DNA of 26,944 nt from positions 15,172-42,115 of the forward strand of contig JBBIPC010000026.1 of NCBI GenBank assembly GCA_037443035.1, in the 5' to 3' direction. The position numbers and the translations under genes were made by a program. Source of the DNA: Chthonomonadales bacterium (GTDB lineage: Bacteria > Armatimonadota > Chthonomonadetes > Chthonomonadales > CAJBBX01). This document shows, in pieces, positions 1,677 to 26,006 of this stretch (within the stretch, counting starts at the first letter, position 1; every line of letters begins with the position of its first letter). Under the pieces are notes generated by a model that was not told the DNA's origin, did not search any database, and saw nothing but the letters and a program-made list of their open reading frames with translations.

Positions 1677-1918
1677 AGCAATCTCTCTTTCTGCGTCGTA
1701 CCAGCGGTTCCTGCTGGCTACGTCCAGCAGATGCGTAAGGTCGCGCGCCGCCAGCATCTGACAAGATCGCGGACGAGACGAGCAATCATCCACTGTCGCT
1801 GTACGCGCCTGCAGCCGGAGCACCGAACGCAGTGGATCCGTACTATGCGTCAAGCGGATGTCACCGGCAGATCGTCGGTGCCGACTTCCGCGCTACTAGC
1901 GCCTCATGCGAGGAGAGT

Positions 1919-2767
1919 ATGGGATCCATTGTCTCGAAGCAAGATCTCGATTTCTTCACCGAGAACGGTTTTCTGACTGCCCGGCGCCTGCTCAGCGATG
2001 AAGAGGTCGCCGTCCTACGCTCACGATGTTTCGAAATCCTCGAGGGCAGGGGCTCTCGGAAGCCGGAGTCGGTGCGGAATCTGTACGGCGACGAAGAGAA
2101 GGTCGTCATCCAGATCGTCAACGCCTGGGAGGCCGATGATCGGTTCTACCGCTACCTGTTTCACCCCGCTCTTACGGAAGCGGTAGCGTTGCTCATGGCA
2201 ACCGACACTGTTCGGGTCTGGCATGATCAGGTGCAGTACAAGCCGCCACGCAAGGGTGGTCCCACGGTGTGGCACCAGGATCATCCTTACTGGCCCGTGC
2301 TCCAACCGGCAGATCTGGTCAGCGCATGGCTGGCGCTGGAGGACGCGGATGTGGAGAACGGCTGCATGCACGTGGTTCCTCGAAGTCATCGTTGGGGGCC
2401 CTACGACGGTGGCACCGTGGGCATCCGGGAAGAGGACTGGGGGCCGGACTATGACCCGACGTTCGTCCCCGCAGGTGAGGTTGTGGAGATCGTTCCCTGC
2501 CCTGTCCGTGCCGGAGAAGTCATGTTCCACCATTGCCTCACGTGGCACGGTACACCGCCCAACCGAAGCGAGCGAGGTCGTCCCGGCTTCGCGGTTCATT
2601 TCATGCCGGGCCACACGCGCTATGTGCCGCGCGCTGGTCATCTCATCGAGCACCGCATCACAGTCCAGCCCGGAGAGATCCTACAGGGGGAGTACTTCCC
2701 TACTGTGTGGGACCATGGCCCTGTCGTCCCTCCGCCTCACGTGGCGGATCAGGAGGCGCGAAAATGA
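1919..2767 (+). CDS. Phytanoyl-CoA dioxygenase (PhyH) family Fe(II)/2-oxoglutarate dioxygenase (~282 aa)
   Basis: RBS gaggag before ATG 1919. Motifs FFTENGF, WHQD (HxD), WLALEDADVENGCM, distal His in WHGTPPN and a following Arg. Confidence 0.9.
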   Translation: MGSIVSKQDLDFFTENGFLTARRLLSDEEVAVLRSRCFEILEGRGSRKPESVRNLYGDEEKVVIQIVNAWEADDRFYRYLFHPALTEAVALLMATDTVRVWHDQVQYKPPRKGGPTVWHQDHPYWPVLQPADLVSAWLALEDADVENGCMHVVPRSHRWGPYDGGTVGIREEDWGPDYDPTFVPAGEVVEIVPCPVRAGEVMFHHCLTWHGTPPNRSERGRPGFAVHFMPGHTRYVPRAGHLIEHRITVQPGEILQGEYFPTVWDHGPVVPPPHVADQEARK

Positions 2768-3549
2768 ACCTCGACAGCATCGTGACGGACGAGCACGTTG
2801 CATTCTTCCGTCAGAACGGGTTCGTGCAGTTGGAGCGCGTGCTCACGCCAGAAGAACTCTCCGCCATACGCGCGGCGGCTGACGATGTGCTCTCGCGTCG
2901 CTATGACGCGCGTATCGACACTTCGGCGGCCAATCCGGAATACGAGAAGGTCTTCGTTCAGAAGGTGAACCTCTGGCGGGTGCACGACGGCATCCGCGAA
3001 TACGTTCTGAGACCCAGACTTGCCGAGATCGGGCGCCGGCTCCTGGGCGTGCCAGCGGTACGCTTATGGCACGATCAGCTTCTGACCAAGATGCCTGGCG
3101 ATAGCAAGCCTTCGCCATGGCATCAGGACCGACCCTACTGGCCCATGATCGGCTACAGTCAGCTATCCTGCTGGATGGCGCTGGACGATGTGGACGAGCA
3201 AAACGGCTGCATGCAGTTTCTGCCGGGAACGCACCTCTGGGGAGAGCTGGAACCTGTGAACCTGGTGACGCCGCAAGATCTTCGCGACGTCGCAGGCGAG
3301 CGCGAGATTCCAGATCCCTACGTTGCACGGCTCAGCGCAGGAAGCTGCACGTTCCACCATTCCCTGACGTTTCACTACGCTGGCCCGAACCGCACCGAGC
3401 GTCCCCGGCGTGCGCTCGTCACAATCTACATGGCGGATGGCACGGGCTACAACGGTCGTGGCCACGTGGTGACCGATGGCCTCGGCTTGCCAGTGGGCGA
3501 GCCACTCCAAGGGGAGCTGTTCCCAGTACTCGCTTCTGCCGAGGTCTGA
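2764..3549 (+). CDS. Second PhyH family dioxygenase (~261 aa)
   Basis: ATGA overlap with the upstream stop and RBS aggagg. Motifs FFRQNGF, WHQD, WMALDDVDEQNGCM and FHYAGPN..RPRR. Confidence 0.9.
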   Translation: MNLDSIVTDEHVAFFRQNGFVQLERVLTPEELSAIRAAADDVLSRRYDARIDTSAANPEYEKVFVQKVNLWRVHDGIREYVLRPRLAEIGRRLLGVPAVRLWHDQLLTKMPGDSKPSPWHQDRPYWPMIGYSQLSCWMALDDVDEQNGCMQFLPGTHLWGELEPVNLVTPQDLRDVAGEREIPDPYVARLSAGSCTFHHSLTFHYAGPNRTERPRRALVTIYMADGTGYNGRGHVVTDGLGLPVGEPLQGELFPVLASAEV

Positions 3550-3684: not shown

Positions 3685-3713
3685 TTGACTATATCGTGAA
3701 CTCATGATATCAT
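3685..3713 (+). promoter_or_regulatory. Sigma70-type promoter of the arsR-tusA-hdr operon
   Basis: TTGACT (3685-3690), 17-nt spacer, TATCAT (3708-3713) with extended -10 TG. An AT-rich stretch lies upstream (3670-3679) in an otherwise GC-rich window. Confidence 0.8.
3691..3710. promoter_or_regulatory. Palindromic operator, likely the ArsR autorepression site
   Basis: ATATCGTGA-AC-TCATGATAT is an 8/9 inverted repeat with a 2-nt centre. It fills the -35/-10 spacer, as ArsR/SmtB operators typically do. Confidence 0.7.
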
Positions 3714-3732
3714 CATGTCCGGAGGCCGTGAC

Positions 3733-4083
3733 ATGATGGAAGAGAGAGCTTTGATCGCCATGGAGGCTCTGGAACGGGTGGTGCCGATGATCCGCACAGC
3801 AGCTCACCCGCTGAGGCTTCGCATCCTGGACTACCTCGAGACTGCGGGCGAGCCACGTACCGTCAGTCAGATCATCGATTGCTGTGGCGCTGCGCCGTCC
3901 TTCGTCAGTCAGCAACTGCGAATCCTCAAGGATCAGGGAATCCTTGCCTGTCGGCGGAAGGGCGCGTACGTCTACTACCACATTGCTGACCGCTCTGTCC
4001 TTCATTTGCTCGCCTGTATTCGGCATAGTCAGGGTCTCGACGACAGATCAGATGCTTCACGAAAGGAAAAGAACGATGGCTGA
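3733..4083 (+). CDS. ArsR/SmtB family transcriptional repressor (~116 aa)
   Basis: HPLRLRILDYL...TVSQI...VSQQLRILKDQGIL..RRKGAYVYY. RBS ggagg at 3721; start 3733 or 3736. Confidence 0.92.
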   Translation: MMEERALIAMEALERVVPMIRTAAHPLRLRILDYLETAGEPRTVSQIIDCCGAAPSFVSQQLRILKDQGILACRRKGAYVYYHIADRSVLHLLACIRHSQGLDDRSDASRKEKNDG

Positions 4084-4324
4084 TCTCAACTCCATTACCC
4101 CCGCGAAGACGGTAGACGCGCGCGCTATGGCGTGCCCTGGTCCGTTGCTGGAAGCCAAGAAGGGCATTGGTGGCGTTGCCGTGGGACAGGTCCTCGAGAT
4201 CCTCTCGGGTGACAAAGGAAGCCGTGAGGACATCCCGGCCTGGTGCAAGAAGACCGGTCACGAGTACCTTGGCTTTGTCGAGCGTGACGGCTACGACTCT
4301 CTGTACGTCATCCGGAAGAAGTAG
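4076..4324 (+). CDS. tusA: TusA/SirA family sulfur carrier (82 aa)
   Basis: VDARAMACPGPLL (CPxP persulfide Cys), GQVLEILSGD and DIPAWCKKTGH. Overlaps the arsR stop. Confidence 0.9.
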   Translation: MADLNSITPAKTVDARAMACPGPLLEAKKGIGGVAVGQVLEILSGDKGSREDIPAWCKKTGHEYLGFVERDGYDSLYVIRKK

Positions 4325-4332
4325 ATTCGGCG

Positions 4333-4758
4333 ATGCGGTCAGCGGATGACCTCAAGATCCTGATCATTACGACAATGATCAGCTCCTATCCGGGCGCGAA
4401 CACAGTTGGCCAGGCACGCCTGCAGTACTCCCCTGGGACGTACATCATCCGCGTGCCAGATCCAGTCCTCTTCCCCGAGGATTTCTATCTCCGGTGCTTC
4501 CGAAAGGGCATGGACGGGATCATCGTCATGAGTTCCGGTTCCGACTGTCCCTACGAGGGTGCCTACCAGCGCCTTTCCGCACGCATCGGCCGGGTCTACG
4601 AGCGGATGAAGGCCCAGGGGATTTCCAGTTCCCGACTCAAGTTGACGACGGTCTGCACGGTGTGCAAGGCGGCCTTCCTCAAGGAAATCCGCGATATGCA
4701 GGAGGCCATTCTGGCCGACGATGGGGAGCGCCCGACCCTAGCCGTGCAAGCCGCCTAG
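4333..4758 (+). CDS. MvhD/FlpD-like (hydrogenase delta subunit) protein with an atypical cysteine pattern
   Basis: SYPGANTVGQARLQYSP..IIRVP, F.KG.DGIIV..DCPY and GI...RL match the MvhD scaffold. Most canonical Cys positions are replaced, and a CTVC is present near the C-terminus. Confidence 0.8.
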   Translation: MRSADDLKILIITTMISSYPGANTVGQARLQYSPGTYIIRVPDPVLFPEDFYLRCFRKGMDGIIVMSSGSDCPYEGAYQRLSARIGRVYERMKAQGISSSRLKLTTVCTVCKAAFLKEIRDMQEAILADDGERPTLAVQAA

Positions 4759-4767
4759 GATTCAGCG

Positions 4768-6099
4768 ATGAAAACGACGACGCGACAGATCCGAACCGAC
4801 GTTCTAGTGGTGGGGGCAGGCATTGCTGGCCTCCAAGCATCCTTGGATCTGGCCGACCAGGGCCGGTCCGTGGTGCTAGTGGAAAAGCGCCCCAGCATCG
4901 GCGGCGCCATGATCAATCTCAGCAAAGTCTTTCCGACTCTGGACTGTGCCAGTTGCATCACGACCCCTCGCATGGCATCCGTGGCGCATCACCCCAACAT
5001 TCAGCTCTTCACACTCACAGAGCTGCGGTCGGTGGAGAAAACGACGGATCGCTTCCGGGCACAGATGGTCAAGAAGCCGCGGTTCATTGACGAGAGCAAG
5101 TGCATCGGCTGCAAACGCTGCGAGGAAGCGTGTACCGTGTACCTACCGGATGAGTTCGAGCACGGTCTCGGTGCGCGGAAGGCGATTTCCATACCCTTCA
5201 CGAACGCCATACCGCAGTACCCGGTCCTTGACGAGGAGAACTGCCTGCTATGCGGCTCCTGTGCCCGGGCCTGCCCGACTGAGTGCATTGACTTCCTTCA
5301 GGAACCGGAGGAGATCGAGGTGGACGCCGGGGCAGTCATCATGACGACCGGCTTCGATCTGACGCCCATTGATGTCAAGCCGCACTACGGAGGTGGTGGG
5401 TTTCCCAACGTCCTCTCTCCCCTGCAGATGGAACGCCTACTCGCACCCCACGGCCCCTACGGCGGAGTCATGCGACCATCCGATGGCCGGACGCCCGACT
5501 CCATCGCCTACGTTCAGTGCGCTGGTTCCCGCGACAAGAGCATCGGAGTGCCGTATTGCTCCAGGGTCTGCTGCATGTACGCGATCAAGCAGGCCATGCT
5601 CCTCTCGGGGTCGCTCCCCATTGCGGACATCACGATCTACTACATGGACATTCGCGCCTTCGGCAAGGGCTACGAGCAGTTCTACCAGAACGCCAAGGCC
5701 ATGGGCATCAACTTCGTGAAGGCCAAGGTTGCGCGCATACGGGAGGATGAAAACCACAACCTCTTCCTTCGCATCGAGCGACAGGACGATGGCAGCGGCC
5801 CCCAGGAGGTCCAGCACGATCTAGTGGTGCTCTCGCTGGGGATGGTGCCCGCCTGGATTCCTTCCCGTGATGGCATCGTGCCTCTGGAAGCGGACAGCGA
5901 TGGCTTCGTCCGTCTGCCGAGTGCGAAGCTGAGACCGAACCTTACTACCATGGACGGTGTCTTCGCGGCAGGCGCCGCCACAGGCCCCAAGGACATCGTG
6001 GACGCCATCACCGACGCTGGGGCAGCGGCCATGGCAGCCTCCAACTATCTGGCACGCCTCGCGGGTAGCAGGGTCGTTACGGCAGGAGCGGTACGATGA
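4768..6099 (+). CDS. HdrA/QmoA-like FAD, iron-sulfur flavoprotein (HdrA1)
   Basis: GAGIAG FAD motif; KVFPTLDCASCI; inserted ferredoxin motifs CIGCKRC..C and CLLCGSC..CP; QCAGSRD; YCSRVCCMYAIKQ; GPKDI. Confidence 0.92.
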   Translation: MKTTTRQIRTDVLVVGAGIAGLQASLDLADQGRSVVLVEKRPSIGGAMINLSKVFPTLDCASCITTPRMASVAHHPNIQLFTLTELRSVEKTTDRFRAQMVKKPRFIDESKCIGCKRCEEACTVYLPDEFEHGLGARKAISIPFTNAIPQYPVLDEENCLLCGSCARACPTECIDFLQEPEEIEVDAGAVIMTTGFDLTPIDVKPHYGGGGFPNVLSPLQMERLLAPHGPYGGVMRPSDGRTPDSIAYVQCAGSRDKSIGVPYCSRVCCMYAIKQAMLLSGSLPIADITIYYMDIRAFGKGYEQFYQNAKAMGINFVKAKVARIREDENHNLFLRIERQDDGSGPQEVQHDLVVLSLGMVPAWIPSRDGIVPLEADSDGFVRLPSAKLRPNLTTMDGVFAAGAATGPKDIVDAITDAGAAAMAASNYLARLAGSRVVTAGAVR

Positions 6100-7994
6100 C
6101 CGAAGCAAGCATCTCCCCGACCCAAGACGATGGTGCCGTTGGCGGCTCCCCACCGCGTGACGGCGTTCGTGTGGGCGTCTATGTGTGTCACTGCGGTGGC
6201 AATATCTCTGACGTAGTCGACACAGCGGCAGTAGCTGAAGCCCTGGCGCACCACCCCGACGTGGCGGTCTCGCGTGATTACGTATTCATGTGCTCGGACC
6301 CCGGCCAGAACCTGATCGTCGAGGATATCCAGGCCGGGCGGGTGAACCGCGTTGTAGTCGCCGCCTGTTCGCCGACTCTTCACGAGACGACATTCCGCAA
6401 AGCGCTGGAGCGCGCTGGACTGAACCCATATCTGTACGAGCATGTTAACATCCGGGAGCAGACGAGCTGGGTCCACAAAGGCGACCATGAGCGGGCCACA
6501 CGCAAGGCCATCCGTCTCACGGCCGCAGGTGTCGAGAAAGTGGCCCAGCAGGAAGAGCTGCATTCCATCGCTGTGGAGGTGACCCACCACGTGGCCGTCA
6601 TCGGTGGTGGGGTTGCCGGTATGACGGCAGCCCTCGCTACCGCCGATCAGGGTATCGGGGTAACTCTCATCGAAGCGGCCGATTGCCTCGGCGGACGGAT
6701 GCAAGAGCTGAACACTGTCTATCCGACCGACGACAAGGCGGCGGACCTGGTAAGGGATCTCGAGGGCCGCGTCACGGCGCACGCGAAGATCGAGATCCTT
6801 CTCGCCGCACGCGTTACCGAGATGGACGGGCATGTTGGCAAGTTCCGGATCGCCGTCCAACTGGCAGATCGGTCCATTCGCGAGATACGTGCCGGCGCCG
6901 TCATCTTCGCGACGGGATTCGACCATTACCAACCCATCGAGGGTGAGCTGGGCCATGGCACAACGCCTGCCGTGGTGACCTTGCCGGAGTTTCAGAATGT
7001 CCTGCGTGAGGCCATGCCCGCCGAGGGGGGATTCACCTACGACGGCCGAGTCGTACGGAGCGTTGCGTTCATCCACTGCGTGGGATCCCGTCAGATCGAG
7101 GGCATCCATGCTCCCCAGCCGGACGGGAAGGTCAATGACTACTGCTCCCGCGTGTGCTGCACAGCGACGCTTCATGCGGTCAAGCAGCTCCAAGACCGGT
7201 TCCCGGAGGTGCTGGTCTACGATCTGCACAAGGACATTCGGACCTATGGACGCGGGCACGAGGACCTCTACGAGCTGGCATCGCGCCGCGGCACGCTCTT
7301 CTTCCGCTTCCCGGACGAGGAACCACCCACAGTGAACGTCCAGGACGGCAAGATCCTGGTGACGACGAAGGACATCCTGACATGGGGAGAAGAGCTGGCC
7401 ATACCCGCGGATATGGTCGTGCTGGCCACGGGCATGATGCCTCGGGATATCAGCGATCTCATCGCCATGCGTAAGCTGCCAGTGGGCGCCGACCGATTTC
7501 TCCAGGAAGTCCATCCGAAGCTCCGGCCCGTCGAAATGGCCAACAACGGCATCCTCCTGGCCGGAGCGTGCCAGGGGCCCATGGACATCAACGAAGCTTG
7601 TGCAGCAGCGCAGACAGCGGCTGTGAAAGCGGCTATCCTCCTAGCGAAGCCTGTCATCGAGCTGGATCCGTTCGTGGCCGAAGTGAACCAGGACCTCTGC
7701 GATGGCTGCGAACTCTGCCTGGCCGAGTGCGAGTACGACGGTGCGCTGACCATGGTGGACGTGACAGCGAACGGCGTAACCGCACGGAGAGCTGTGGTAA
7801 CGCCTGCTCTGTGCGTGGGATGCGGAGCCTGCGCGGCAGTCTGCCCCACACGCGCCATCAACGTGGCAGGTTGGACGCTGGATCAGTTCGACGCCATGGT
7901 GGACGCGATCGTGGCAGAAGATGTCGCCAGTCTTGCCACGTCGGAACGGCGCAGGAAGTCCTACAAGCCGCTTAGCGTCGCTGTCAAGAGCTAG
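6096..7994 (+). CDS. HdrA/QmoB-like FAD, iron-sulfur flavoprotein (HdrA2)
   Basis: N-terminal GVYVCHCGGNI / FMCS / AACSP / NIREQ domain; GGGVAG; HCVGSR; YCSRVCC; GACQGP; C-terminal ferredoxin CDGCELC..C and CVGCGAC...CP. ATGA overlap with HdrA1. Confidence 0.92.
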   Translation: MTEASISPTQDDGAVGGSPPRDGVRVGVYVCHCGGNISDVVDTAAVAEALAHHPDVAVSRDYVFMCSDPGQNLIVEDIQAGRVNRVVVAACSPTLHETTFRKALERAGLNPYLYEHVNIREQTSWVHKGDHERATRKAIRLTAAGVEKVAQQEELHSIAVEVTHHVAVIGGGVAGMTAALATADQGIGVTLIEAADCLGGRMQELNTVYPTDDKAADLVRDLEGRVTAHAKIEILLAARVTEMDGHVGKFRIAVQLADRSIREIRAGAVIFATGFDHYQPIEGELGHGTTPAVVTLPEFQNVLREAMPAEGGFTYDGRVVRSVAFIHCVGSRQIEGIHAPQPDGKVNDYCSRVCCTATLHAVKQLQDRFPEVLVYDLHKDIRTYGRGHEDLYELASRRGTLFFRFPDEEPPTVNVQDGKILVTTKDILTWGEELAIPADMVVLATGMMPRDISDLIAMRKLPVGADRFLQEVHPKLRPVEMANNGILLAGACQGPMDINEACAAAQTAAVKAAILLAKPVIELDPFVAEVNQDLCDGCELCLAECEYDGALTMVDVTANGVTARRAVVTPALCVGCGACAAVCPTRAINVAGWTLDQFDAMVDAIVAEDVASLATSERRRKSYKPLSVAVKS

Positions 7995-8004
7995 GAGCAG
8001 GGAT

Positions 8005-8304
8005 ATGAGCGAGACAGAAACCCCACGATCGAAGAGCAACTACGCCGCCCAACAGATCAAACAGGCCCGGGCCAAGCGGGGCAAGATGGACCCGACCAAG
8101 CTGGAGGCCCACAAACGCAACCGGGAGATCCAAGACGCGATTCTGACGGCCATCGCGGATAGGGCCATGACGGTGCCGGAGATCGCCGAAGTCACGGGCA
8201 TGGATACGCACCTCGTCTTCTGGTGGATCACTGCCATGCGCAAGTACGGGAAGGTTCAAGACGACGAGAAGCGGGGCGATTACCTAGCCTACCGGAAGAA
8301 ATGA
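8005..8304 (+). CDS. Small winged helix-turn-helix protein (99 aa)
   Basis: RBS aggag, ATG 8005. ILTAIADRAMTVPEIAEVTGMD..LVFWWITAMRKYGKV resembles a wHTH. 10-nt gaps on both sides. Confidence 0.75.
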   Translation: MSETETPRSKSNYAAQQIKQARAKRGKMDPTKLEAHKRNREIQDAILTAIADRAMTVPEIAEVTGMDTHLVFWWITAMRKYGKVQDDEKRGDYLAYRKK

Positions 8305-8314
8305 GGTACGAACC

Positions 8315-9430
8315 ATGGCCATCGCGGTAGATCCATCGCTTCTACGCGAGCTGAAGAGGCACGGCGCCTTCGACATATCTGCGTGTTTCCACTGCGGCAA
8401 CTGCACAGCAGTATGTCCGCTCTCGGACGAGGTCGGGAACTTCCCGCGCCGGATGATACGCCTGGGCCAGATCGGCGACCGTGCACGGCTCCTGGGGAAT
8501 CCGGACACGTGGTTGTGCTACTACTGCGGCGAGTGCTCCGACACCTGTCCCCGGCAGGCGGAACCTGGAGAGTACATGGCCGCCGTTCGGCGCTACGCCA
8601 TCGCCACAGCCGAGCCTACAGGACTGGCGCGGTTCATGTATGGAAGCACCCTGGGGCTTCTCCTGATGACGGTCGTCTTCGGTATCATCCTCGGCGCGTT
8701 CCTGGTCGCGGTACGTAGCCCCGGCGAGGCTCAGCACTGGCTGTTTCGCCTGGTCTCCTACCAGACCATCCACAACGTGGGTCTGGGGGTGATGGTTCTG
8801 ACCGTGCTCAGTGCGGTCATCAGTGCCGGCAATGTCCTGCGACGCTTCCTGCGTAACGCTCCCAAGATCACGGCGCCAGCCATGGCCATGGCATGCAGAC
8901 GAACCATGGTCGAGCTGCTGACCATGAAGCGTCATCGGGACGAGACACCGACACCGGGCCAACCGTGGTACCGGAACGCCGCCACAGTTCACTTGACCAT
9001 CATGTGGGGTTTCCTAGGGCTGCTGCTGGCCACTACTCTCGACTTCGTGTTCATTGTGCTTCTGCCGCTGCACATTACAACGTTCTGGCCTGCTCGAGTT
9101 ATCGGAACGGTCAGCGGAGTTGTCATGTTGGCAGGTGTGACGGCTGCGATCGTCCGCCGGCTGACGAAAGCCGAGAAGAACGTGACGAAGACGGATCCTG
9201 TGGACTGGTGGCTCTTGTGGGTTCTCTTCGTACTGGCCATCACTGGCTTCTGGCTGGAGATCGTCGTGACCATCCGGTCGGCAAGCCCCATCCATGACGT
9301 CGTACTGCTCGTTCACGCGGCTCTGGCGATGGAGCTTGTGCTACTGGCGACGTTCACCAAACTGGCCCATGTAATCTACCGTCCCCTGGCCCTAGTCGCC
9401 TATTTCCTGCGCAAGGAGACCTCTTCGTGA
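8315..9430 (+). CDS. QmoC-like subunit: HdrC-type 2x[4Fe-4S] domain fused to an HdrE/NarI-type heme-b membrane domain
   Basis: CFHCGNCTAVCP and CYYCGECSDTCP, then about 6 hydrophobic helices with His in HLTIMWGF, LVHAAL and TKLAHVIYRP. Confidence 0.85.
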   Translation: MAIAVDPSLLRELKRHGAFDISACFHCGNCTAVCPLSDEVGNFPRRMIRLGQIGDRARLLGNPDTWLCYYCGECSDTCPRQAEPGEYMAAVRRYAIATAEPTGLARFMYGSTLGLLLMTVVFGIILGAFLVAVRSPGEAQHWLFRLVSYQTIHNVGLGVMVLTVLSAVISAGNVLRRFLRNAPKITAPAMAMACRRTMVELLTMKRHRDETPTPGQPWYRNAATVHLTIMWGFLGLLLATTLDFVFIVLLPLHITTFWPARVIGTVSGVVMLAGVTAAIVRRLTKAEKNVTKTDPVDWWLLWVLFVLAITGFWLEIVVTIRSASPIHDVVLLVHAALAMELVLLATFTKLAHVIYRPLALVAYFLRKETSS

Positions 9431-9491
9431 AGGTGTCCGGTGACGACTCTCGGCTAGCCTCGGTGCTGGCACACAAGATGAGGATAGAAGG

Positions 9492-10070
9492 ATGACAAGC
9501 GAGAAAGAACACATGTCTGCGACGACGGAAACGCTGGCAGCTCAGGTAGCGACGCTTCAGGAAGAAGTCGAGCGTCTCAAGGCGAATGCACCGGACGACA
9601 AACTCTCCATGGTGGTGTTCAGCGGCGATCTCGACCGGCAACTGGCGGCATTTATCATCGCGACCGGCGCTGCTGCCATGTTCGACGAAGTCGTCATGTT
9701 CTTCACGTTCTGGGCGACGCCAGCGTTGCGGGACCCTAAGAAGCGCCCAGGGCCAAAGGACATGATGGCGAAGATGTTCGGCTGGATGCTACCCAAAGGT
9801 GCCGGTCGGCTGAAGCTCTCCAAGATGCACATGGCCGGTATGGGGACCGGCATGATGAAAGGGCTCATGAAGAAGAAGGGTGTTCTTTCGCTGGAGCAGC
9901 TCATCCAACAGGCAGCCAACTCCGGTGTGAAGATCTACGTCTGCCAGATGAGCATGGAGCTGATGGGTTTCACCACGGATGAACTGATTGACTATCCCGA
10001 TCTCAGGGTCGCTGGCGTGGCCAAATTCCTTGCCGAGGCCGGTACGAGCAAGGCGACGCTGTTCATATAG
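9492..10070 (+). CDS. DsrE/DsrF/DrsH-like (DsrE2-type) sulfurtransferase
   Basis: LSMVVFSGDLD, AFIIATGAAAM, MFFTFW, LSKMHMAGMG, VCQMSMELMG (conserved Cys) and C-terminal TLFI. Alternative start at 9513. Confidence 0.9.
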   Translation: MTSEKEHMSATTETLAAQVATLQEEVERLKANAPDDKLSMVVFSGDLDRQLAAFIIATGAAAMFDEVVMFFTFWATPALRDPKKRPGPKDMMAKMFGWMLPKGAGRLKLSKMHMAGMGTGMMKGLMKKKGVLSLEQLIQQAANSGVKIYVCQMSMELMGFTTDELIDYPDLRVAGVAKFLAEAGTSKATLFI

Positions 10071-10210
10071 ATTGTTTCGACTAGTCCTGCGGGCAGGCTG
10101 GGGACGCTGCATGCCTCCGCCGGTGCTGTACCTCGCAGGGGCAACCAACGTGAGCCCGTGTGCCCAACGGCACAACTGGGAACGAAAAACAGGAAGGACA
10201 TGCTGCAACT

Positions 10211-10651
10211 ATGAAGCAAGTGTGCGTGGCCGCGGCAGGCGTCATTGCCGTGCTGGCGGTCACCATTGGTAGTACGCCGGCGGTAGCCACTGACGGGTAC
10301 TTCAGTCACGGCTACGGAACGCGAGTCAAGGGCATGGGAGGCGCCGGAGTCGCTCTACCGCAAGACTCCACATGCGTCGTCGTCAACCCGGCCGGGGCAT
10401 TGCGCGTCGGAAACCGCTACGATATCGGGCTTGCCCTTTTTCATCCGGAGCGTGGCTACCGCGTCGACGGCAATCCCAGCGGAGCACCGGGCACGTTCGG
10501 GCTCATGCCTGGCGGCCACGAGAGCGACAACCTGAACTTCGCTGTCCCGGCACTCTCGATCACCAGGGTGTTGGGCCCGTACTCCGCCTGTGCCTCCACC
10601 CTCGGCAGCCGCATTGTGCATCGCTTCAGGCACCGCGATGGACGCGGATGA
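10211..10651 (+). pseudogene. 3'-truncated FadL/OmpP1/TodX-like outer-membrane channel (146 aa remnant)
   Basis: Signal peptide ending PAVA, then TDGYFSHGYG...KGMGGAGVALPQD...NPAG, the hatch N-terminus of FadL-type barrels. Similarity fades around 10590 and the ORF stops flush against the convergent gene; family members are usually ~400+ aa. Confidence 0.7.
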
Positions 10652-11597: not shown

Positions 11598-12701
11598 CTA
11601 CGGGGTACCGAACCGAGCGAGTGCGAGCTTCAGATGACGGACAGCCTCCGTCTCCCAGCGCAGGGCTGTGCGAATGGCTGCTCCTCCACCTCGACGCCTC
11701 GTGGGCTGCAACCAGAGTAGGCGGATGTCCTCGACATCGGTTACACCCGACTCTGTGCCCAGCCAATGGCCCCACTCGGTCCAGGCATCGGCGGCCCGGT
11801 GGAATAGAGCTGCTGCCTCACGGATGTGCGCACGTGCTGTCTCGGGAAAATCAGCCAGATGACGTTCCAGATAGCGTGCAGCAATGTCGCGCCCGGCTAT
11901 CTGCCGGTAGACGCAGTGGCCGCCGAGCCATCCCGCATGCCAGTGATCCGGGTCCATGGTCCGGTCTTCGATGTCCTCCGCGAACCGTTTGAGACCTTGA
12001 AGGCCGTACGAGGCGTGGTCCAGGTACCGGACATGTGCGCGTGGATCGTCATCGGCGCAACGGACCATGGCAGCGATGACCTCGCGCAGCGTCTTGGAGA
12101 CCGGCACCCTGGAGCAGGCTTCGCCGATTCGTTCCATGGCTCCGAACTCGGCTTGCCACTTCTCGAACATCTCCCAGTCCCACCATTGTTGAACGTTCCA
12201 CCCCCCGCGAACGAGAAGCCGTCGAGCGGAGGGTTCTGCATGGTCCTCGTAACCTAAGAAAACGACGTCGTCCAACCAGGACCCATGCACAGGTTTTCCC
12301 ATATCCACGGAATAGCAAATATACCTCCACGCATCCTCGGCACTTTGCGGCGATTCGGGACGTTCGAACCGAAAACCTGTGGCACTTGCCAGGCGATCAT
12401 CCACGACTTCCTGCGGATCGGGCGTTGCGTAGAGTGGTTGGTAGCGTTGCGGGTGATACGCGAACGCCGTGGCGTGGCCCGAGATGACCAGGACCGTGTC
12501 GTAGTCTACATCCTGGGCACCGGCCACCTCGAGCAACGCAGCACGGCACAGATGGGCGCTATAGAGGCGGTTGATCTGGCCTTCGTCAGTGGGGAAACTG
12601 TACCCTATTTCAGTGGCCTTTTCCAGGACACGAGCTTTCCCCACCTCGCCAGCGGCGCGCCTCGCAACGAAGTCCCTTGTTTCCGATCGTCCAGTAGACA
12701 T
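11598..12701 (-). CDS. Hypothetical protein (367 aa), possible BtrH-like / papain-fold N-terminal region
   Basis: Fills the gap between co-directional genes. The pattern DYDTVLVISGHATAF ... AWRYICYSVDMGKPV ... VFLGYED recalls BtrH_N/C39-like proteins; the fold call is weak. Confidence 0.6.
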   Translation of the reverse strand: MSTGRSETRDFVARRAAGEVGKARVLEKATEIGYSFPTDEGQINRLYSAHLCRAALLEVAGAQDVDYDTVLVISGHATAFAYHPQRYQPLYATPDPQEVVDDRLASATGFRFERPESPQSAEDAWRYICYSVDMGKPVHGSWLDDVVFLGYEDHAEPSARRLLVRGGWNVQQWWDWEMFEKWQAEFGAMERIGEACSRVPVSKTLREVIAAMVRCADDDPRAHVRYLDHASYGLQGLKRFAEDIEDRTMDPDHWHAGWLGGHCVYRQIAGRDIAARYLERHLADFPETARAHIREAAALFHRAADAWTEWGHWLGTESGVTDVEDIRLLWLQPTRRRGGGAAIRTALRWETEAVRHLKLALARFGTP

Positions 12702-16036: not shown

Positions 16037-16166
16037 CCCTGAGCGCTCGAGGGGACACGTAGTACCTGCGGACGTGCGACCGGCGGCGCAACTGTGCCAT
16101 CGTCCGTGCGAAACGTGCACGGATGCGGCGTCGGAGGCAAGTATACTAAGAAGAGGTTCTAGTGTC

Positions 16167-16961
16167 TTGAGCATTTACGTCATCGTCAACCAGAAGGGTG
16201 GTGTGGGCAAGACCACCACCGCCGTCAACCTCGCAGCCTATCTCGCGCTAGCGGGCAGGAGAATCCTGCTGGTGGACCTCGACCCACAAGCCAACGCCAC
16301 CAGCGGTCTGGGGCTAGACAAGAACAGCATTGGCAAGAACGGCTCGGCGGCGGAATACGGGGTCTACCATGTCCTGGTCGAGGGTGCAGCATCCAAAGAC
16401 GCAATCGTACCGACTGCCACGACGAATCTCTGGGTGATGCCTGCGAACCTGGACCTAGCAGGTGCCGAGGTGGAGCTCATGCCCCGCGTGGCGCGCGAAA
16501 CCGTCCTCCGGCGTGCCCTGGATACGGTGCGCGCGGACTACGATATCGTTCTTCTCGACACGCCGCCATCCCTTGGCATTCTCACCGTTAACGCCCTCAC
16601 TGCCGCCGACGCGGCTGTCGTACCGATCCAGTGCGAGTACTACGCGCTGGAAGGGGTCAGCCAGCTCATGCGGACCATCGAGATCGTGCAACAATGCCTG
16701 AACCCGGGGTTGCACGTAGCAATGGTCATCCTTACCATGTACGACAGCCGTATTCGGCTATCGCAGCAGGTAGCAGACGAAGTACGGAGCGTGTTCGGGG
16801 ATCGGGTGTCGCCGACGGTCGTACCTCGCAATGTCCGCCTATCCGAGGCCCCGAGTCACGGTGAGCCCATAGCGCTCTATGACCCCGGGTCCCGAGGAGC
16901 CACAGCCTATCAGCGACTGGCGGAGGAGGTGATGCAGCTTGAGCAAACGCGGCCTCGGTAG
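16167..16961 (+). CDS. parA: Chromosome partitioning ATPase ParA/Soj
   Basis: NQKGGVGKTTT deviant Walker A, DLDPQANAT, DTPPSLG, QCEYYALEG and PRNVRLSEAPSHG. TTG start after agagg; TATACT at 16142-16147. Confidence 0.95.
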   Translation: MSIYVIVNQKGGVGKTTTAVNLAAYLALAGRRILLVDLDPQANATSGLGLDKNSIGKNGSAAEYGVYHVLVEGAASKDAIVPTATTNLWVMPANLDLAGAEVELMPRVARETVLRRALDTVRADYDIVLLDTPPSLGILTVNALTAADAAVVPIQCEYYALEGVSQLMRTIEIVQQCLNPGLHVAMVILTMYDSRIRLSQQVADEVRSVFGDRVSPTVVPRNVRLSEAPSHGEPIALYDPGSRGATAYQRLAEEVMQLEQTRPR

Positions 16962-17802
16962 AGGTCTGAACGCACTTCTGGCTGGAACCCAGGCCGACGA
17001 CGTGGCACGCAACGTGCGCGAACTGCGGCTGGAGAGCATCGCGCCGAATCCGTTCCAACCGCGAACGCATTTCGACGAGGATTCCCTGAAGGAACTAGCC
17101 GACTCCATACGGGAAAACGGCGTTCTGCAGCCGGTCCTCGTTCGCCGGCGCGGTCCAGAGCGGTACGAGATCATCGTCGGGGAGCGGCGCCTGCGGGCGT
17201 CGCGTATGGCCGGTTTAGCGACAATACCCGCCATCGTTCGGGAGTGCTCCGACAGAGATATGCTCCTCGTTGCCTTGGTGGAGAACGTCCAACGGGAGGA
17301 CGTGAACCCCGTGGAGCAGGCGCAAGCCTACTACAGGATGCAACACGAGTTCGGCCTGACGCAGGAGGAGATTGCGCGGCGCGTGGGGCGTTCCCGTTCT
17401 GCGGTTGCCAATACGACTCGGCTGCTCTCCTTGCCCGAGCGTGCGCTGCAAGCGCTACAGGATGGACGGATCACGGAAGGCCATGCCCGGTTGCTTGTGA
17501 GTTTGGATCCCTCCCTCCAAGGCACAGCGTTGGAGGCGTTTCTGGGGCGTCAAATGAGTGTGCGGGAGGCTGAAGCGTTCGTTCGCTCCCTACGACGCGG
17601 TGAGAATGCAGCACAGGCCGAAGGAGTGCAGCCCGGTAGCCGGGATCCCAACCTTGCGGCGCTGGAAGATAGCCTGTCGGTGGCACTGGGCACCCGTGTC
17701 GCTGTGGAACCGCTCGTCCGTGGCCGTGGCTCAGTACGTATCGAGTACTACACCGAGGAACAGCTCGAGGGGATTGTGGAGCGTATCATCGGCGGGAGCT
17801 AG
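16939..17802 (+). CDS. parB: Chromosome partitioning protein ParB/Spo0J
   Basis: MSKRGLGRGLNALL, PNPFQPR, GERRLRA (CTPase), ENVQRED and HTH LTQEEIARRVGRSRSAVAN..R, GHAR. Overlaps parA. Confidence 0.95.
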   Translation: MSKRGLGRGLNALLAGTQADDVARNVRELRLESIAPNPFQPRTHFDEDSLKELADSIRENGVLQPVLVRRRGPERYEIIVGERRLRASRMAGLATIPAIVRECSDRDMLLVALVENVQREDVNPVEQAQAYYRMQHEFGLTQEEIARRVGRSRSAVANTTRLLSLPERALQALQDGRITEGHARLLVSLDPSLQGTALEAFLGRQMSVREAEAFVRSLRRGENAAQAEGVQPGSRDPNLAALEDSLSVALGTRVAVEPLVRGRGSVRIEYYTEEQLEGIVERIIGGS

Positions 17803-18848: not shown

Positions 18849-21127
18849 TCCCCATTCTGCTCGCCTCCTTTCTAGTAGTTCGGCCTGCATCGCCGCCAGT
18901 GGGCCTTCGCCTGGAGGGCAGCTTTCTGCAGTACAGCGATTCGATGGCAAACCGCACGTTCGCGGAGTGGCGCAGGGAGTTGGACGCGGCGCGCGCCATC
19001 GGTCTCCACACGATCATCATCCAGTGGCTCTCCTATGGGAATCACGCATACATGCCCGCCGGGTCTGGCCCAGATCCCACGGAGCACATCCTCCGATACG
19101 CAGACGCGCACGGCTTGCGCATCTTCATCGGTCTGCGTGGTGATGAGGCATGGTGGAGCAACTGGAAGGATGCCGCCTATCTCGATGCCCTTGCGGCAGC
19201 TAGCGAACGCATCGCCAGTCTCGCGTGGAAACGCTATGGCCACCATCGCGCCTTCGCGGGCTGGTACATTCCAACCGAGCTCTGGGACGCCCCGTTCACC
19301 GATGCGCAGATTGCCGCCTTGCGACGCTTCTTCCAGACCATCAGCACACACTGCAAGAGCCTCGCCGACGGCAAGCCTGTGGCCATTGCGCCGTTCTTCA
19401 CGGGCCTTACACCGCCCAAGCGTGTGTCGGAGATCTATGCCGCGCTGCTCACGGATTCCAATGTGGACGTCCTCATGCTCCAGGATGGCGTTGGAGCCAG
19501 GGGCTGGCACACCGAAATCGAGGAACGGGTTGTTCCCTATTTCCAGGCGTTCAGAGACGCCTGTCTTGCGGGAGGGGTCGAGCTGTGGTCCGATCTCGAG
19601 TGCTTCAGACTAGAGGATCGGAAGACGCATGCCTTCGGGCCAGCACCGCCCGAGCGGATACTAGAGCAGCTCGCCGCTGAGGCACCGTTTGTTCGGCACT
19701 TCGTGACCTTCGACTTCTTTCACTACATGAGCCCCTCCTGCGGCAAGCAAGCGTCGAACCTGTACTACGGCTACAAGCGGTTCTGCGCGGATGCGGCATT
19801 CCTGCCTGTTCTCGGTCGGTCCATGCAAGTAGACCCGACATTCGTCTACTATCGCGATCGCTCTCCGGAGAGTATTGCCGACGAGATTCGGGCGGCGGGC
19901 TACAGCCTTGTGCATTACGTCGTGGTCAACGACACCGATGTAGACGGTAGACTGGTGGAAGCCTTCCGGCGACGGGGCATCGGTGTGTGGTACGTTACGT
20001 TCGGCAACGGTACCTACCGCCCCTCGGGCCTGCCACCCGGCTGGGAAGAATGGCGCATGGTGACGCGCTCCGACCTGGCCGGTCAGCCTCACAACGATGG
20101 CTACACACGTCTCTGCCTGAACAATCCGGCCTACCGTGCTTGGAAGAAGTCCACCATGGCGAAGGTGCTCACGCAGCATGCGTTCGTTGGAGTGGATATC
20201 GCCGAGCCGCACTGGCCGGAGTACCCCGGCATCGCTTCGCCCGCTTATGCATGCTTCTGCAAGTACTGCAGATCGGCGTTTCTGAAGGCGAATCCCGAGG
20301 AGACGGACCTGCCGGATATCCTGGACCCGGCATCGCCACGACATCCCTCCCGCAATCCTGAGCTCTGGGCGAAATGGCTCCGCTTCCGCCAGGTCTCCCT
20401 CACCGACTTCCTGAAGGATCTTGTCAACGCACCGGACGGCCTCCGACAGACCTGCCCAGACCGCAAGGTGTGCACATGGACGCTGGCGCTGCTCGGCGAT
20501 GACGGCATGGCTCGGGTGCGCGAGCTGCACGGTGAGGACGCAGCCGAAGTCGTCCGCATCGTCAAGCCCGACGTGCACTGCCTGCAGACCCACTGGCCCG
20601 ATTGGATGGAGGGGGACCTGGAAGGAGATTACGTTCGGGGCTACAAGCCGTATCTCGATGCCATACGTCGCGTGGTACCGAATGCTCCGGTCGTCTTGCA
20701 GGCGGACATCGGCTCGCAGAAGCAGAATCGCCGATCCTGGGCGTGGGTACGTCAGTTCGAGAATGCATGCAGGCGTATGGGCGCCCAGGGGGCCATGTCG
20801 TACGAATACTTCATCGGCGGGTACATGTACGATGAACCGCCTAGGGTGGTGGAAGCGAGTCGAGTGGGAGATGCGTTGCGGCTTGTTTTCGACAAGAGGC
20901 TCGACCCGGCAACCGCCGGCAAGACAGGCGCCTACGAGATCGAGGGAGCGAACGTGACGGATGTGGAGGTGGATGGTAACGTCGTGAAGTTGCGCCTGAC
21001 GGGCGCGAAACCTGGGAGTCTCCTGCGAGTGACCGCGAAGGGTATCGCCGACGCCGCTGACCGGCGGCTTTTCGATGATCGGCCGCCATGCGTGCTCGTC
21101 GAACAGACGCTGCGTGTGCGCTGGTGA
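18845..21127 (+). CDS. DUF4434 domain + second glycoside-hydrolase-like TIM barrel + C-terminal Ig-like domain (~760 aa)
   Basis: GTGA overlap with the permease stop. LEGSFLQ...IIIQW...GWYIPTE...LQDGVG...LWSDLE matches DUF4434. The second half has LCLNNPAYR, GVDIAEP, CFCKYC..AF and W..FR, as in GH-like barrels. Confidence 0.7.
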   Translation: MIPILLASFLVVRPASPPVGLRLEGSFLQYSDSMANRTFAEWRRELDAARAIGLHTIIIQWLSYGNHAYMPAGSGPDPTEHILRYADAHGLRIFIGLRGDEAWWSNWKDAAYLDALAAASERIASLAWKRYGHHRAFAGWYIPTELWDAPFTDAQIAALRRFFQTISTHCKSLADGKPVAIAPFFTGLTPPKRVSEIYAALLTDSNVDVLMLQDGVGARGWHTEIEERVVPYFQAFRDACLAGGVELWSDLECFRLEDRKTHAFGPAPPERILEQLAAEAPFVRHFVTFDFFHYMSPSCGKQASNLYYGYKRFCADAAFLPVLGRSMQVDPTFVYYRDRSPESIADEIRAAGYSLVHYVVVNDTDVDGRLVEAFRRRGIGVWYVTFGNGTYRPSGLPPGWEEWRMVTRSDLAGQPHNDGYTRLCLNNPAYRAWKKSTMAKVLTQHAFVGVDIAEPHWPEYPGIASPAYACFCKYCRSAFLKANPEETDLPDILDPASPRHPSRNPELWAKWLRFRQVSLTDFLKDLVNAPDGLRQTCPDRKVCTWTLALLGDDGMARVRELHGEDAAEVVRIVKPDVHCLQTHWPDWMEGDLEGDYVRGYKPYLDAIRRVVPNAPVVLQADIGSQKQNRRSWAWVRQFENACRRMGAQGAMSYEYFIGGYMYDEPPRVVEASRVGDALRLVFDKRLDPATAGKTGAYEIEGANVTDVEVDGNVVKLRLTGAKPGSLLRVTAKGIADAADRRLFDDRPPCVLVEQTLRVRW

Positions 21128-21215
21128 ACGGACCCACCGTCCGGGCGCACGGCGAGGCAGGCGCAGCTCCCCGCAATGTAGGATTCAGACACTGCCGAGG
21201 GGTATCTCACCGTCC

Positions 21216-21953
21216 ATGAACAACACTCCAGACGCAGCCCCTAGAAGCGCCCGGTGGCACCGTTGGAGGTCGGTGCTGTGGGTTGTCTTCCTCGTAGCTA
21301 TTGTCGCTGCTGGGGTTCCGGCGTTACGGTTCCGGAGCTACTCCATGAGCCGTGTTCGTTGCCAGTCGAACCTGCGCCGCTTGGCTGTGGCGTTGCTCCT
21401 CTATGCCCAGGATCACGACTACCGATTCCCCATACCCGACTATCCCACCGGCCCGGACCGTTACCGAACATGGGTGGACCTGCTGAGCATGTACGTAGAC
21501 CGCCAGCCCATCCTCCAGTGCCCATGGAACGAGCCAGGGCATGCTCGCCATCCGCGCAAGGGCTTCCGATTCGGCTCCAGCTACGCCCTCAACTCGCGCT
21601 TCTGGAACCATTTCATGCCTGGGCCCTTCCCCTTGGACAACCTGGAGTTACCGACCCAGACGGTACTGCTCGTCGAAGCGGGCAGGGAACGGGCAGATGG
21701 CCCGTTCGGTCACGACCTCACCGATAGAATCTGGCATACCTACTGGGACACGGGCGCCATGCCGGGTGCCTATCCTTCGCCCCACTGGGGGAAGATGAAC
21801 ATCGTGGCAGTGGACGGACACGCCCGGACCGTCAGCGTGGCACACTATAGCCTCGACGGCCACAATCCTCAGCTCGGCAGGTTGGGAGGCGGTGTGTTCA
21901 ACTGGAACGGTGGTCATCCCAACGGAGACACCTCCGGTCCTCCTGCCGAGTAG
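21216..21953 (+). CDS. DUF1559/SBP_bac_10-like pilin-type protein with H-X9-DG C-terminal motif (~245 aa)
   Basis: One N-terminal TM helix, CQSNLRRLAVALLLYAQDHD, ILQCP, SYALN and HWGKMNIVAVDGH. Confidence 0.8.
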   Translation: MNNTPDAAPRSARWHRWRSVLWVVFLVAIVAAGVPALRFRSYSMSRVRCQSNLRRLAVALLLYAQDHDYRFPIPDYPTGPDRYRTWVDLLSMYVDRQPILQCPWNEPGHARHPRKGFRFGSSYALNSRFWNHFMPGPFPLDNLELPTQTVLLVEAGRERADGPFGHDLTDRIWHTYWDTGAMPGAYPSPHWGKMNIVAVDGHARTVSVAHYSLDGHNPQLGRLGGGVFNWNGGHPNGDTSGPPAE

Positions 21954-22108
21954 GCGGCACTGGGGTTCGCTGGCGATCCCTTGCCACTCGAACCTGCCGG
22001 TAGTTCACAGTACTTCCCTGAGACGGTAGATTGTCGGTACACTGGCATACTCACCACGAGGTGTATGGCGATTCGCGAGATCTACGAATCGCCGGGAGGT
22101 TGACGACC

Positions 22109-24925: not shown

Positions 24926-25983
24926 ACCTGCGGATCCTGCCGCACGACGGATGGGAGGAGATCGTTCTTGCGCTGCCATGCGCGCCAGGGGAGAGTGCGT
25001 CGGAAGCGCTTCTCAGGGCGGTTTCCGTGCTCCATCGCGAGGATGCTGACCTCCTCCGCGCGGTCGTCTTTGGCAGGGTAACACCCCACGGTCAGACCGT
25101 CGTCGGTCCGCGTGGCATTCCGGCAACCTTCATCGAGGGAGCGCCCTGCTCGGAAGGGTTAGTGGCAGGCGTCCAGGTTGTGGGTGCCCGCGGAGTCGAA
25201 GTAGCATGCTACGAAGGGGAGTACGGAGCCATGGCCACCGTGGTGGAGGATCGCCACGCGCGCTGGGCCTATGTCTCCAACGTTGCGCCGAGTTCCCTCT
25301 GGGCGCCACCAGGCATGCAGGCGCGGGAGGCGTTCGAACGGGCCGAAGCGACGTTACGGCTGGCGGGCATGGGCTTTGAGCATGTCTATCGCACATGGCT
25401 CTTCGTGGAAGACATTTTGGGGTGGTATGGCGACCTCAACAGGGTGAGGACCGCCTTCTATAGCGAGCGCGGTGTGTTCCGGGGAGTCGTGCCTGCCAGT
25501 ACTGGCGTTGGAGCGTCCAATCCCGTAGGCGCAGCCTTGACCATGGATGCGCTTGCGGTCTCGCCCTTGGATGGGCGCATTCAGATACGACCTGTGGAGT
25601 CGCCCCTCCAGTGTTCCGCGCAGAACTACGGAAGCTCCTTCAGCCGGGCGCTGGAAATCGTCGAGCCAGGTCTGCGGCGCCTCGTCGTGTCGGGCACGGC
25701 CAGCATTGGCCGGGATGGGTCTACTTTGTGCGTGGGAGACGTCGCCGCTCAGACCGACTGGACACTGGACGTCGTGGAGGCCATCCTCCGGAGCCGTGCT
25801 ATGGACTGGAGCGACGTCACACGGGCCGTGGCTTACTTCCGCAACCCCTCCGATTGGTGCGTCCTTCCCGATCGCTGGGTTCGGCGAGGGGCGCCCGACC
25901 TCCCGGTGATCACAGCTGCCAGCGTGATCTGCCGCGACGACCTTCTCTTCGAAATAGAACTCGACGCGGCGAGACCGGACTAG
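24922..25983 (+). CDS. Multi-domain RidA/YjgF-fold protein, FkbO/Hyg5 chorismatase-like (~353 aa)
   Basis: GTGA overlap with the upstream stop. Motifs RTW, YGDLNRVR, PASTGVG, ESPLQCSAQNYGSSFSRA, SGTASI and ICRDDLLFEIE. Confidence 0.75.
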   Translation: MNLRILPHDGWEEIVLALPCAPGESASEALLRAVSVLHREDADLLRAVVFGRVTPHGQTVVGPRGIPATFIEGAPCSEGLVAGVQVVGARGVEVACYEGEYGAMATVVEDRHARWAYVSNVAPSSLWAPPGMQAREAFERAEATLRLAGMGFEHVYRTWLFVEDILGWYGDLNRVRTAFYSERGVFRGVVPASTGVGASNPVGAALTMDALAVSPLDGRIQIRPVESPLQCSAQNYGSSFSRALEIVEPGLRRLVVSGTASIGRDGSTLCVGDVAAQTDWTLDVVEAILRSRAMDWSDVTRAVAYFRNPSDWCVLPDRWVRRGAPDLPVITAASVICRDDLLFEIELDAARPD

Positions 25984-26006
25984 AACGTAGCTCAGGAACC
26001 CACACC

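Follow-up and report, generated by a model that had tools for sequence, protein, structure and literature searches.

What does an Hdr/Qmo-like gene set react with when its neighbors are sulfur carriers? The question is raised by an operon in the stretch of Chthonomonadales bacterium DNA above (26,944 nucleotides (nt) of contig JBBIPC010000026.1, assembly GCA_037443035.1; hereafter the window), which encodes an ArsR-type repressor, the carriers TusA and DsrE2, an MvhD-like protein (MvhD*), two HdrA-like flavoproteins (HdrA1 and HdrA2), a small winged helix-turn-helix (wHTH) protein, a QmoC-like membrane subunit and a FadL-like remnant (Table 1). The original prediction, made from these letters alone, was of an undescribed quinone-coupled HdrA-HdrA-QmoC complex that reduces or oxidizes protein-bound sulfane sulfur delivered by TusA and DsrE2. 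The cassette proves to be genuine and conserved, an uncharacterized type II Qmo/Hdr variant for which a specific mechanism, open to testing, can be proposed. New here are the loss of the canonical cluster ligands of MvhD* together with an invariant CxxC motif, the exchange between hydrogenase and tusA modules, and the presence of the bifurcation residues and the flavin-side Cys pair in HdrA1 alone.

The gene set was found to be widely conserved. A QmoC profile matched at least 553 of at least 600 candidate GTDB stretches, the best 80 of which were kept for analysis, and genes were counted in the 61 of these loci with at least 6.5 kb of upstream sequence. The tusA gene is present in 59 of them, mvhD, hdrA1 and hdrA2 in 60 each, the wHTH gene in 55 (by tblastn, always between hdrA2 and qmoC) and arsR in 21. 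The 68 loci with tusA come from at least 12 phyla, Asgard archaea included, and 65 of them have a DsrE gene within 1 kb on the same strand (55 of the 56 with 1 kb on both sides; profile search). At least two DsrE types occupy this place, as window-type DsrE2 was detected by tblastn in 33 of the 61 loci and shorter types replace it elsewhere, with the reactive-site Cys kept in all (Cys151 in 41/41 DsrE2 rows, plus 34/34 shorter replacements); Cys20 of TusA is kept in 69/69 rows. When loci were instead chosen by MvhD*, tusA lay directly upstream and hdrA downstream in 31/31 (a set that includes the window locus and three genomes counted before), and further loci with CxxC-type MvhD, from two phylum samples, contained tusA in 19/19. 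The predicted conservation of the tusA/dsrE linkage was thus borne out. In sampled genomes the distribution of MvhD* is patchy (Armatimonadota 16/301, Chloroflexota 16/301, Bacteroidota 3/301). Among the matches listed, the closest named relatives belong to Armatimonadota, Chthonomonadales; searches of the atlas yielded nothing beyond FlpD clusters and clusters with no name, and no relatives of the cassette were found on viral contigs.

The cassette does not travel with sulfate reduction. Co-occurrence was assessed in 50 of the 80 carrier genomes (completeness not given), of which 9 contain aprA and 10 a dsrA-like gene (9 over the cut-off). In each of the 9 aprA carriers, a separate set of Qmo genes lies close to aprA (complete in 7, cut at the stretch edge in 2), and no aprA was found in the 15 Armatimonadota carriers of 90–100% completeness, with the same model matching elsewhere in the 50-carrier set. 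The expectation that carriers would not all have aprA was confirmed.

One remodeled component is MvhD*. Its model (predicted local distance difference test (pLDDT) 83) has 5odh_D as the best structural match (template modeling (TM) score 0.76). None, one or two of the four canonical [2Fe-2S] Cys residues are kept in 6, 32 and 31 of 69 rows, respectively, and never more, and C108 and C111, at the start of the last helix, are kept in 69/69. MvhD* is a separate gene, and its products form a single clade (support 100 in the tree). A predicted MvhD*-TusA complex (score 0.01, mark 0.32) carries no weight either way.

The two HdrA subunits divide between them the domains of a full-length HdrA. HdrA1 aligns to residues 146–566 of methanogen HdrA (5odc_A), so both terminal domains are missing and the inserted ferredoxin domain is present, and the alignment of HdrA2 to 8rvu_a omits residues 251–325. 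Methanogen HdrA is the best PDB match for both, sHdr HdrA (6tjr) being weaker. The Lys and the Cys pair on the side of the flavin adenine dinucleotide (FAD) of bifurcating HdrA are kept in HdrA1 only: C60, C63 and K274 occur in 65/65 rows and E222 in 64/65, and at the Lys position HdrA2 has Gln in 33, His in 20, Ser in 4, Asn in 3 and Arg in 1 of 64 rows. The Lys and Glu beside the FAD (K274 and E222 of HdrA1) are what we take to be the bifurcation residues. In solved Hdr complexes, MvhD adjoins the partner HdrA's bifurcating FAD, and HdrA's N- and C-terminal domains form with MvhD a mobile arm that serves this FAD (PMC12350162). Because the terminal domains, which are parts of this arm, are found on HdrA2 alone, the HdrA1–HdrA2 pair would be a one-armed heterodimer. 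In two Bacteroidota variants (L075:5704-7077 and L077:5561-6934), HdrA1 carries an inserted GltD-like NAD(P)-binding module of 458 aa at its ferredoxin domain; HdrA1 frames exceed 900 aa in 3/68 loci. Long HdrA1/HdrA2 frames also occur in L079, L148 and L152.

In the QmoC-like subunit, eight Cys residues and H226, H334 and H352 are conserved in 81/81 rows and H153 in 79. The protein has about 6–7 hydrophobic segments and is predicted to bind heme. QmoC was rejected as a marker of the Apr-linked or TusA-linked type because the NF038018 cut-off of 300 does not discriminate (it was also missed by two Apr-linked QmoCs, at 213 and 260) and the QmoC tree mixes contexts.

Comparison with 58 further QmoC-like loci, from an Asgard sample (18 of 21 matches) and from the phylum to which one deltaproteobacterial carrier belongs (40 of 67 matches), revealed three architectures. 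The first (24 loci) consists of QmoA, an MvhD-fused QmoB and QmoC, with aprA in view in 16 and tusA or wHTH in none (0/24). The second (19 loci) consists of tusA, CxxC-type MvhD, HdrA1, HdrA2, wHTH and QmoC, with DsrE in 17. The third (4 loci) has canonical MvhD and no tusA, and mvhG/mvhA are present in 3 of these. The remaining loci are cut by contig ends (5), have a lone qmoC (4) or are of other kinds (2). When L059 is included, QmoC-linked loci with canonical MvhD have tusA in 0/5 and the hydrogenase genes mvhG/mvhA in 4/5. L059 (3254-11104) is a natural swap control, as it contains the same HdrA1/HdrA2/wHTH/QmoC lineage with canonical mvhD-mvhG-mvhA and no tusA. In a quick HdrA tree (67 rows, LG+G4), 22 QmoA/QmoB rows are split from 36 TusA-type rows by a branch with a Shimodaira–Hasegawa-like approximate likelihood ratio test (SH-aLRT) value of 100, and HdrA1 and HdrA2 form their own groups (SH-aLRT 99 and 99) beside three ordinary HdrAs. 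L059 is nested within both of these groups, which indicates module exchange between hydrogenase and TusA/MvhD* inputs. In the QmoC tree, also a quick one, the window protein is one of 43 rows in a group (98) that contains nothing of Apr type, and 7 TusA-type QmoCs fall in a 22-row group with 11 Apr-type ones. The subunits had been expected to lie outside canonical QmoABC clades; this holds for HdrA1 and HdrA2, which stand apart from AprAB-linked QmoAB, but QmoC does mix with Apr-type QmoC in the tree. A candidate explanation of the locus as a canonical Qmo detached from aprBA was rejected. In several of the loci L137-L147, Apr-type QmoAB occurs with a QmoC that groups among those of TusA type, which suggests that the membrane subunit has been exchanged. 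In L073, L132, L133, L134 and L141, a QmoC-like gene of this family has no hdrA nearby, and in L073 dsrE is directly downstream.

Among known systems, the nearest is type II QmoABC, an HdrA-like Qmo for which Chernyh et al. 2020 is reportedly the source. It occurs in organisms without Apr or Dsr, where its role was left open (Neukirchen et al. 2023, PMC10504309). Like the cassette, it has QmoAB nearer to typical HdrA than to canonical QmoAB (HdrA tree, PDB matches), but the available part of PMC10504309 mentions neither a TusA/DsrE linkage nor a remodeled MvhD. The cassette fits the published type II Qmo by definition rather than by direct comparison with the V. moutnovskia and A. degensii proteins. 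The hydrogenase-linked Mvh-Qmo-Hdr cluster of Ca. Methanoglobus, for which bifurcation to menaquinone and ferredoxin was proposed (10.1101/2023.09.08.556235), also contains two HdrA, a QmoC with an HdrC-like domain, MvhD and no HdrB; however, its MvhD is accompanied by MvhAG hydrogenase, whereas the cassette has no MvhGA, a rebuilt MvhD and added TusA/DsrE. The HdrA-HdrA-QmoC core, originally put forward as undescribed, is therefore already in print in these two sources. Canonical (type I) QmoABC, for which confurcation has been proposed (PMC3333476), shares with the cassette HdrA-like flavoproteins, an MvhD-like domain and a QmoC anchor with 2x[4Fe-4S] and four heme His residues, but its HdrA lineage is separate, its MvhD is fused to QmoB and has four Cys, and it adjoins aprBA without tusA, dsrE or wHTH, whereas the host of the cassette has no aprA. 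The sHdr-LbpA systems also link an HdrA-like flavoprotein to TusA and DsrE with reactive Cys residues and to ArsR-type repressors; they differ in having catalytic HdrB and lipoate-binding proteins and no QmoC, where the cassette has QmoC and no CCG-type HdrB. The association of TusA/DsrE with sHdr is covered in PMC11094781, in the available text of which 'Qmo' does not occur. Methanogenic HdrABC-MvhAGD comprises the closest solved structures and shares the FAD-side Cys pair, Lys and Glu (with HdrA1) and the MvhD fold; its HdrA dimer is symmetric and bound to HdrBC, whereas in the cassette two unequal HdrAs share out the domains between them and the place of HdrBC is taken by QmoC. In bifurcating HdrA-MvhD modules generally, MvhD has four [2Fe-2S] Cys, and more than two are kept in 0/69 MvhD*. 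The tusA-mvhD*-hdrA-hdrA-qmoC-dsrE set, or a CxxC MvhD, was not described in the full-text literature searched, which leaves most subscription papers outside, so that a prior mention is possible; the set is likewise not described in the available parts of PMC4911364, PMC13490349, PMC8477390, PMC12142623, PMC6397845, PMC8528874, PMC11094781 and bioRxiv 10.1101/197269.

The reading that we tentatively prefer, at a little under even chances, is that of a one-armed flavin-bifurcating or -confurcating enzyme in which quinol and ferredoxin/NAD(P)H are coupled to TusA/DsrE-borne sulfur, with reduction favored. The narrower version, a widespread confurcating sulfane-sulfur reductase in which a thiol relay replaces the [2Fe-2S] input of Hdr, and quinol together with ferredoxin/NAD(P)H reduces the TusA persulfide, is possible but more doubtful. 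MvhD*, HdrA1, HdrA2 and QmoC would assemble as an asymmetric, membrane-anchored Hdr/Qmo complex with a single bifurcating FAD, in HdrA1, surrounded by three ports. The high-potential port would lead from the core cluster through the clusters and hemes of QmoC, which takes the place of HdrBC, to menaquinone. The inserted ferredoxin domain of HdrA1 would form the low-potential port, its partner being ferredoxin or, in some variants, the built-in NAD(P)H module. The middle port would be the HdrA2 arm bearing MvhD*, at the place where hydrogenase docks in the sister complexes, and we infer TusA-borne sulfur as its partner because TusA and the rebuilt site stand in for the hydrogenase of the sister clusters; DsrE would load or unload TusA. 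Electrons would most likely pass in pairs through a thiol relay from the TusA persulfide to C108/C111 of MvhD*, C60/C63 of HdrA1 and the FAD; the HdrA Cys pair between MvhD and the flavin has been proposed to mediate a two-electron step that is otherwise unexplained (PMC13580544). In the confurcating direction, quinol and reduced ferredoxin/NAD(P)H would reduce protein-bound sulfane sulfur to sulfide and so provide a quinone-linked sulfur sink to organisms that do not reduce sulfate. The potentials of ferredoxin and of the sulfur/sulfide couple are approximately −450 mV and −270 mV, respectively. That of menaquinol is −75 mV (PMC3333476). The average of menaquinol and ferredoxin (∼−260 mV) lies near the sulfur/sulfide couple, and the reaction could therefore run either way near equilibrium. 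Reduction is favored because many carriers come from lineages that are heterotrophic, often fermentative, and have low-potential electrons in surplus, and because neither a four-electron oxidation site nor a sulfite exporter is conserved. The remodeled MvhD and the exchange with hydrogenase strengthen the original proposal of a quinone-coupled complex acting on TusA/DsrE2-borne sulfane sulfur; it is limited by the prior description of the core, the mixing of QmoC with Apr-type QmoC and the presence of HdrB in trans.

Other observations also speak against this reading. Sulfur-handling neighbors are sporadic in the 68 loci (rhodanese 12, CoA-disulfide reductase 7, FadL 6, cysteine desulfurase-like 4, YeeE 2, TauE 1), and no consistent sulfur importer or exporter was found among them. 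MvhD* forms one clade, so the tie to TusA reflects one origin, kept since, and few exchanges rather than many independent events. The C-terminal clusters retained in HdrA2 suggest an Fe-S input as well. The host has a heme-copper oxidase, which would allow the oxidative direction. Such a reversal, in which the same wiring oxidizes sulfide or TusA-bound sulfur and splits the electrons to menaquinone and ferredoxin/NAD(P)+, with detoxification or an additional energy yield as the benefit, is unlikely but the best of the alternatives. It agrees with the constant accompaniment of sHdr systems by TusA/DsrE (PMC11094781) and with the use of the MvhD port as electron input in the hydrogenase-linked sisters (10.1101/2023.09.08.556235); however, the cassette has no HdrB or lipoate-binding protein, a sulfite exporter adjoins only 1/68 loci, and sulfite formation needs a four-electron site, of which none is evident.

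Slightly less probable still is that MvhD*, with a re-ligated Fe-S cluster, does no more than adapt the complex to an electron donor whose genes lie elsewhere, and that TusA/DsrE are a sulfur source for cluster assembly or repair, or regulators of the complex. MvhD* positions 17, 43, 68 and 72 alternate among Cys, Ser and Asp, and since 42/69 proteins have at least four Cys around the site, a re-ligated cluster instead of a dithiol is possible; cysteine desulfurase-like genes lie beside some loci, as listed above, and NifB/X-like genes within 14/68. Against this, three site Cys residues are present in 21 MvhD* (window included) and the CxxC pair alone in 6, and tusA is absent from Apr-type Qmo (0/24) and Mvh-type (0/5) clusters, which are equally cluster-rich.

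It is improbable that the cassette, as a type II Qmo, works for a catalytic partner encoded in trans, whether AprAB (the proposal made for V. moutnovskia) or HdrB. Type II Qmo does occur in the sulfate reducers V. moutnovskia and A. degensii, and in their rows of a table in the same source one accession is passed over between QmoB and QmoC, the gap that a small gene would leave (PMC10504309); hdrB-like genes were found in 23/50 carriers, and also in the host. However, the distribution of aprA described above, with a separate Qmo at every aprA, speaks against AprAB, 27/50 carriers have no hdrB match, and the HdrB of the host has its own HdrA and HdrC. No better placed is a related substrate at the middle port (a small-molecule or protein disulfide, a thiosulfonate or a selenium species) passed on by TusA/DsrE, for which reported thiosulfate transfer by DsrE/TusA homologs (PMC4175335) and CoA-disulfide-reductase/rhodanese genes in some loci and in the host can be cited, but no substrate-specific transporter or enzyme is conserved beside the cassette.

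For the open role of type II Qmo, the near-invariant linkage to TusA/DsrE provides, together with the rebuilt MvhD, a candidate substrate and candidate residues. If the sulfane-sulfur reductase reading is correct, fermenters and heterotrophs living in soil, peat and sediment would have a quinone-linked way to respire sulfur that involves no Psr, Dsr or HdrB. The cassette occurs in many uncultured members of Chloroflexota, Acidobacteriota, Bacteroidota, Armatimonadota and the Asgard archaea, its genes presently annotated as hydrogenase or methanogen-type Hdr subunits; these organisms would then be unrecognized players in cryptic sulfur cycling. The proposed relay bears on two-electron delivery to the bifurcating HdrA flavin, a stated gap (PMC13580544), and would offer a natural test case for the step at the HdrA Cys pair.

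Table 1. Features of the operon, numbered by position in the 26,944-nt window; all nine genes are on the + strand.
Feature	Position	Strand	Description
Putative sigma-70-like promoter	3685..3713	+	10/12 matches, 17-nt spacer; overlaps 10-bp palindrome 3704-3713; candidate ArsR operator
ArsR/SmtB-family repressor	3733..4083 (alternative start 3715)	+	PF01022, NF033788 over cut-off
TusA sulfur carrier	4076..4324	+	PF01206, E 2.5e-21; Cys20 in CPGP motif
MvhD*	4333..4758	+	PF02662; MvhD fold, canonical [2Fe-2S] ligand set lost, C108-x-x-C111 at helix start
HdrA1	4768..6099	+	FAD domain, 2x[4Fe-4S] domain as an insert, core [4Fe-4S]; lacks the arm at either terminus
HdrA2	6096..7994	+	Cluster domain at the N terminus, FAD domain, core cluster, 2x[4Fe-4S] at the C terminus; lacks the inserted ferredoxin, the Cys pair and the Lys
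wHTH, small Cys-free winged-helix protein	8005..8304	+	No Pfam match; model pLDDT 90, SmtB/ArsR-like structural matches
QmoC-like membrane subunit	8315..9430	+	HdrC-like 2x[4Fe-4S] and di-heme-type membrane domain; NF038018 190 bits (cut-off 300)
DsrE2-type sulfur carrier	9492..10070	+	PF13686, E 2.4e-49; Cys151
FadL/OMPP1-type outer-membrane channel, 5' remnant	10211..10651	+	PF03349 in full-length relative

All nine genes of the original prediction are present in the order arsR-tusA-mvhD*-hdrA1-hdrA2-wHTH-qmoC-dsrE2-fadL remnant, and the overlaps or spacings of at most 10 nt claimed through qmoC were found at every junction (−8, 8, 9, −4, 10 and 10 nt), followed by gaps of 61 nt before dsrE2 and 140 nt before the fadL remnant. 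The GC content of the operon (0.61) is close to that of the genome (0.62). Chance clustering and a broken operon were considered and rejected. Of the single promoter/operator proposed 5' of arsR, a sigma-70-like candidate site was located (3685-3713), but the promoter scan found 3 sites versus 1.8 ± 1.3 in shuffled sequences and by itself is not beyond chance. An AT-rich block resembling this region precedes arsR in three of four relatives (L006, L008 and L010, but not L013), and the palindrome is a candidate ArsR operator. In BigR/SqrR, persulfide-sensing ArsR proteins, two conserved Cys form a sulfur bridge (PMC10451225). The window ArsR reaches 27.8 of 155 bits with the BigR model and has Asp at the first BigR-type Cys position, Cys95 near the second, plus Cys50, Cys51 and Cys73; both BigR/SqrR-type Cys occur in 4/26 linked ArsRs. 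The wHTH protein could be a local regulator or a subunit of the complex. The fadL remnant is 79% and 66% identical to residues 1–131 of the intact 434-aa copies in L008 and L006, respectively, and the rest of the gene, after residue 131, was not found anywhere in the genome.

The operon contains no match to the aprAB, sat, dsrAB, CCG (HdrB), hydrogenase or GcvH families (family profile search), and no LbpA was found in it or among the 140 of 427 flanking open reading frames scanned. Within the operon, the absences listed in the original prediction are thus confirmed; elsewhere in the host genome (100% complete, 1% contamination), however, HdrB and an Mvh hydrogenase are encoded by a separate hdrC-hdrB-hdrA-mvhD-mvhG-mvhA operon on contig C4 with canonical MvhD. 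This C4 operon (L005:10161-17189) is complete and also has a maturation-protease-like gene; the same genome has a heme-copper oxidase. In the host, neither aprA nor dsrA was found over the family cut-off, nor PF01747 ATP sulfurylase; futalosine menaquinone genes, complex I, a weak cytochrome bd match, a CoA-disulfide-reductase/rhodanese homolog (51% identity) and one PF01597 gene outside the operon are present. The organism is probably facultative.

Elsewhere in the window, two tandem PhyH-family dioxygenase genes lie directly upstream of the operon (1832-3549, +), and a parA-parB pair is located at 16074-17802 (+). Long open reading frames with no Pfam match occupy 444-1853 (−), 11598-12701 (−), 21075-21953 (+) and 25611-26783 (+). 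At 22031-24925 (+), a gene for a large protein that combines an F5/8 domain with a hydrazine-synthase-alpha middle domain is followed by a RidA-like gene.

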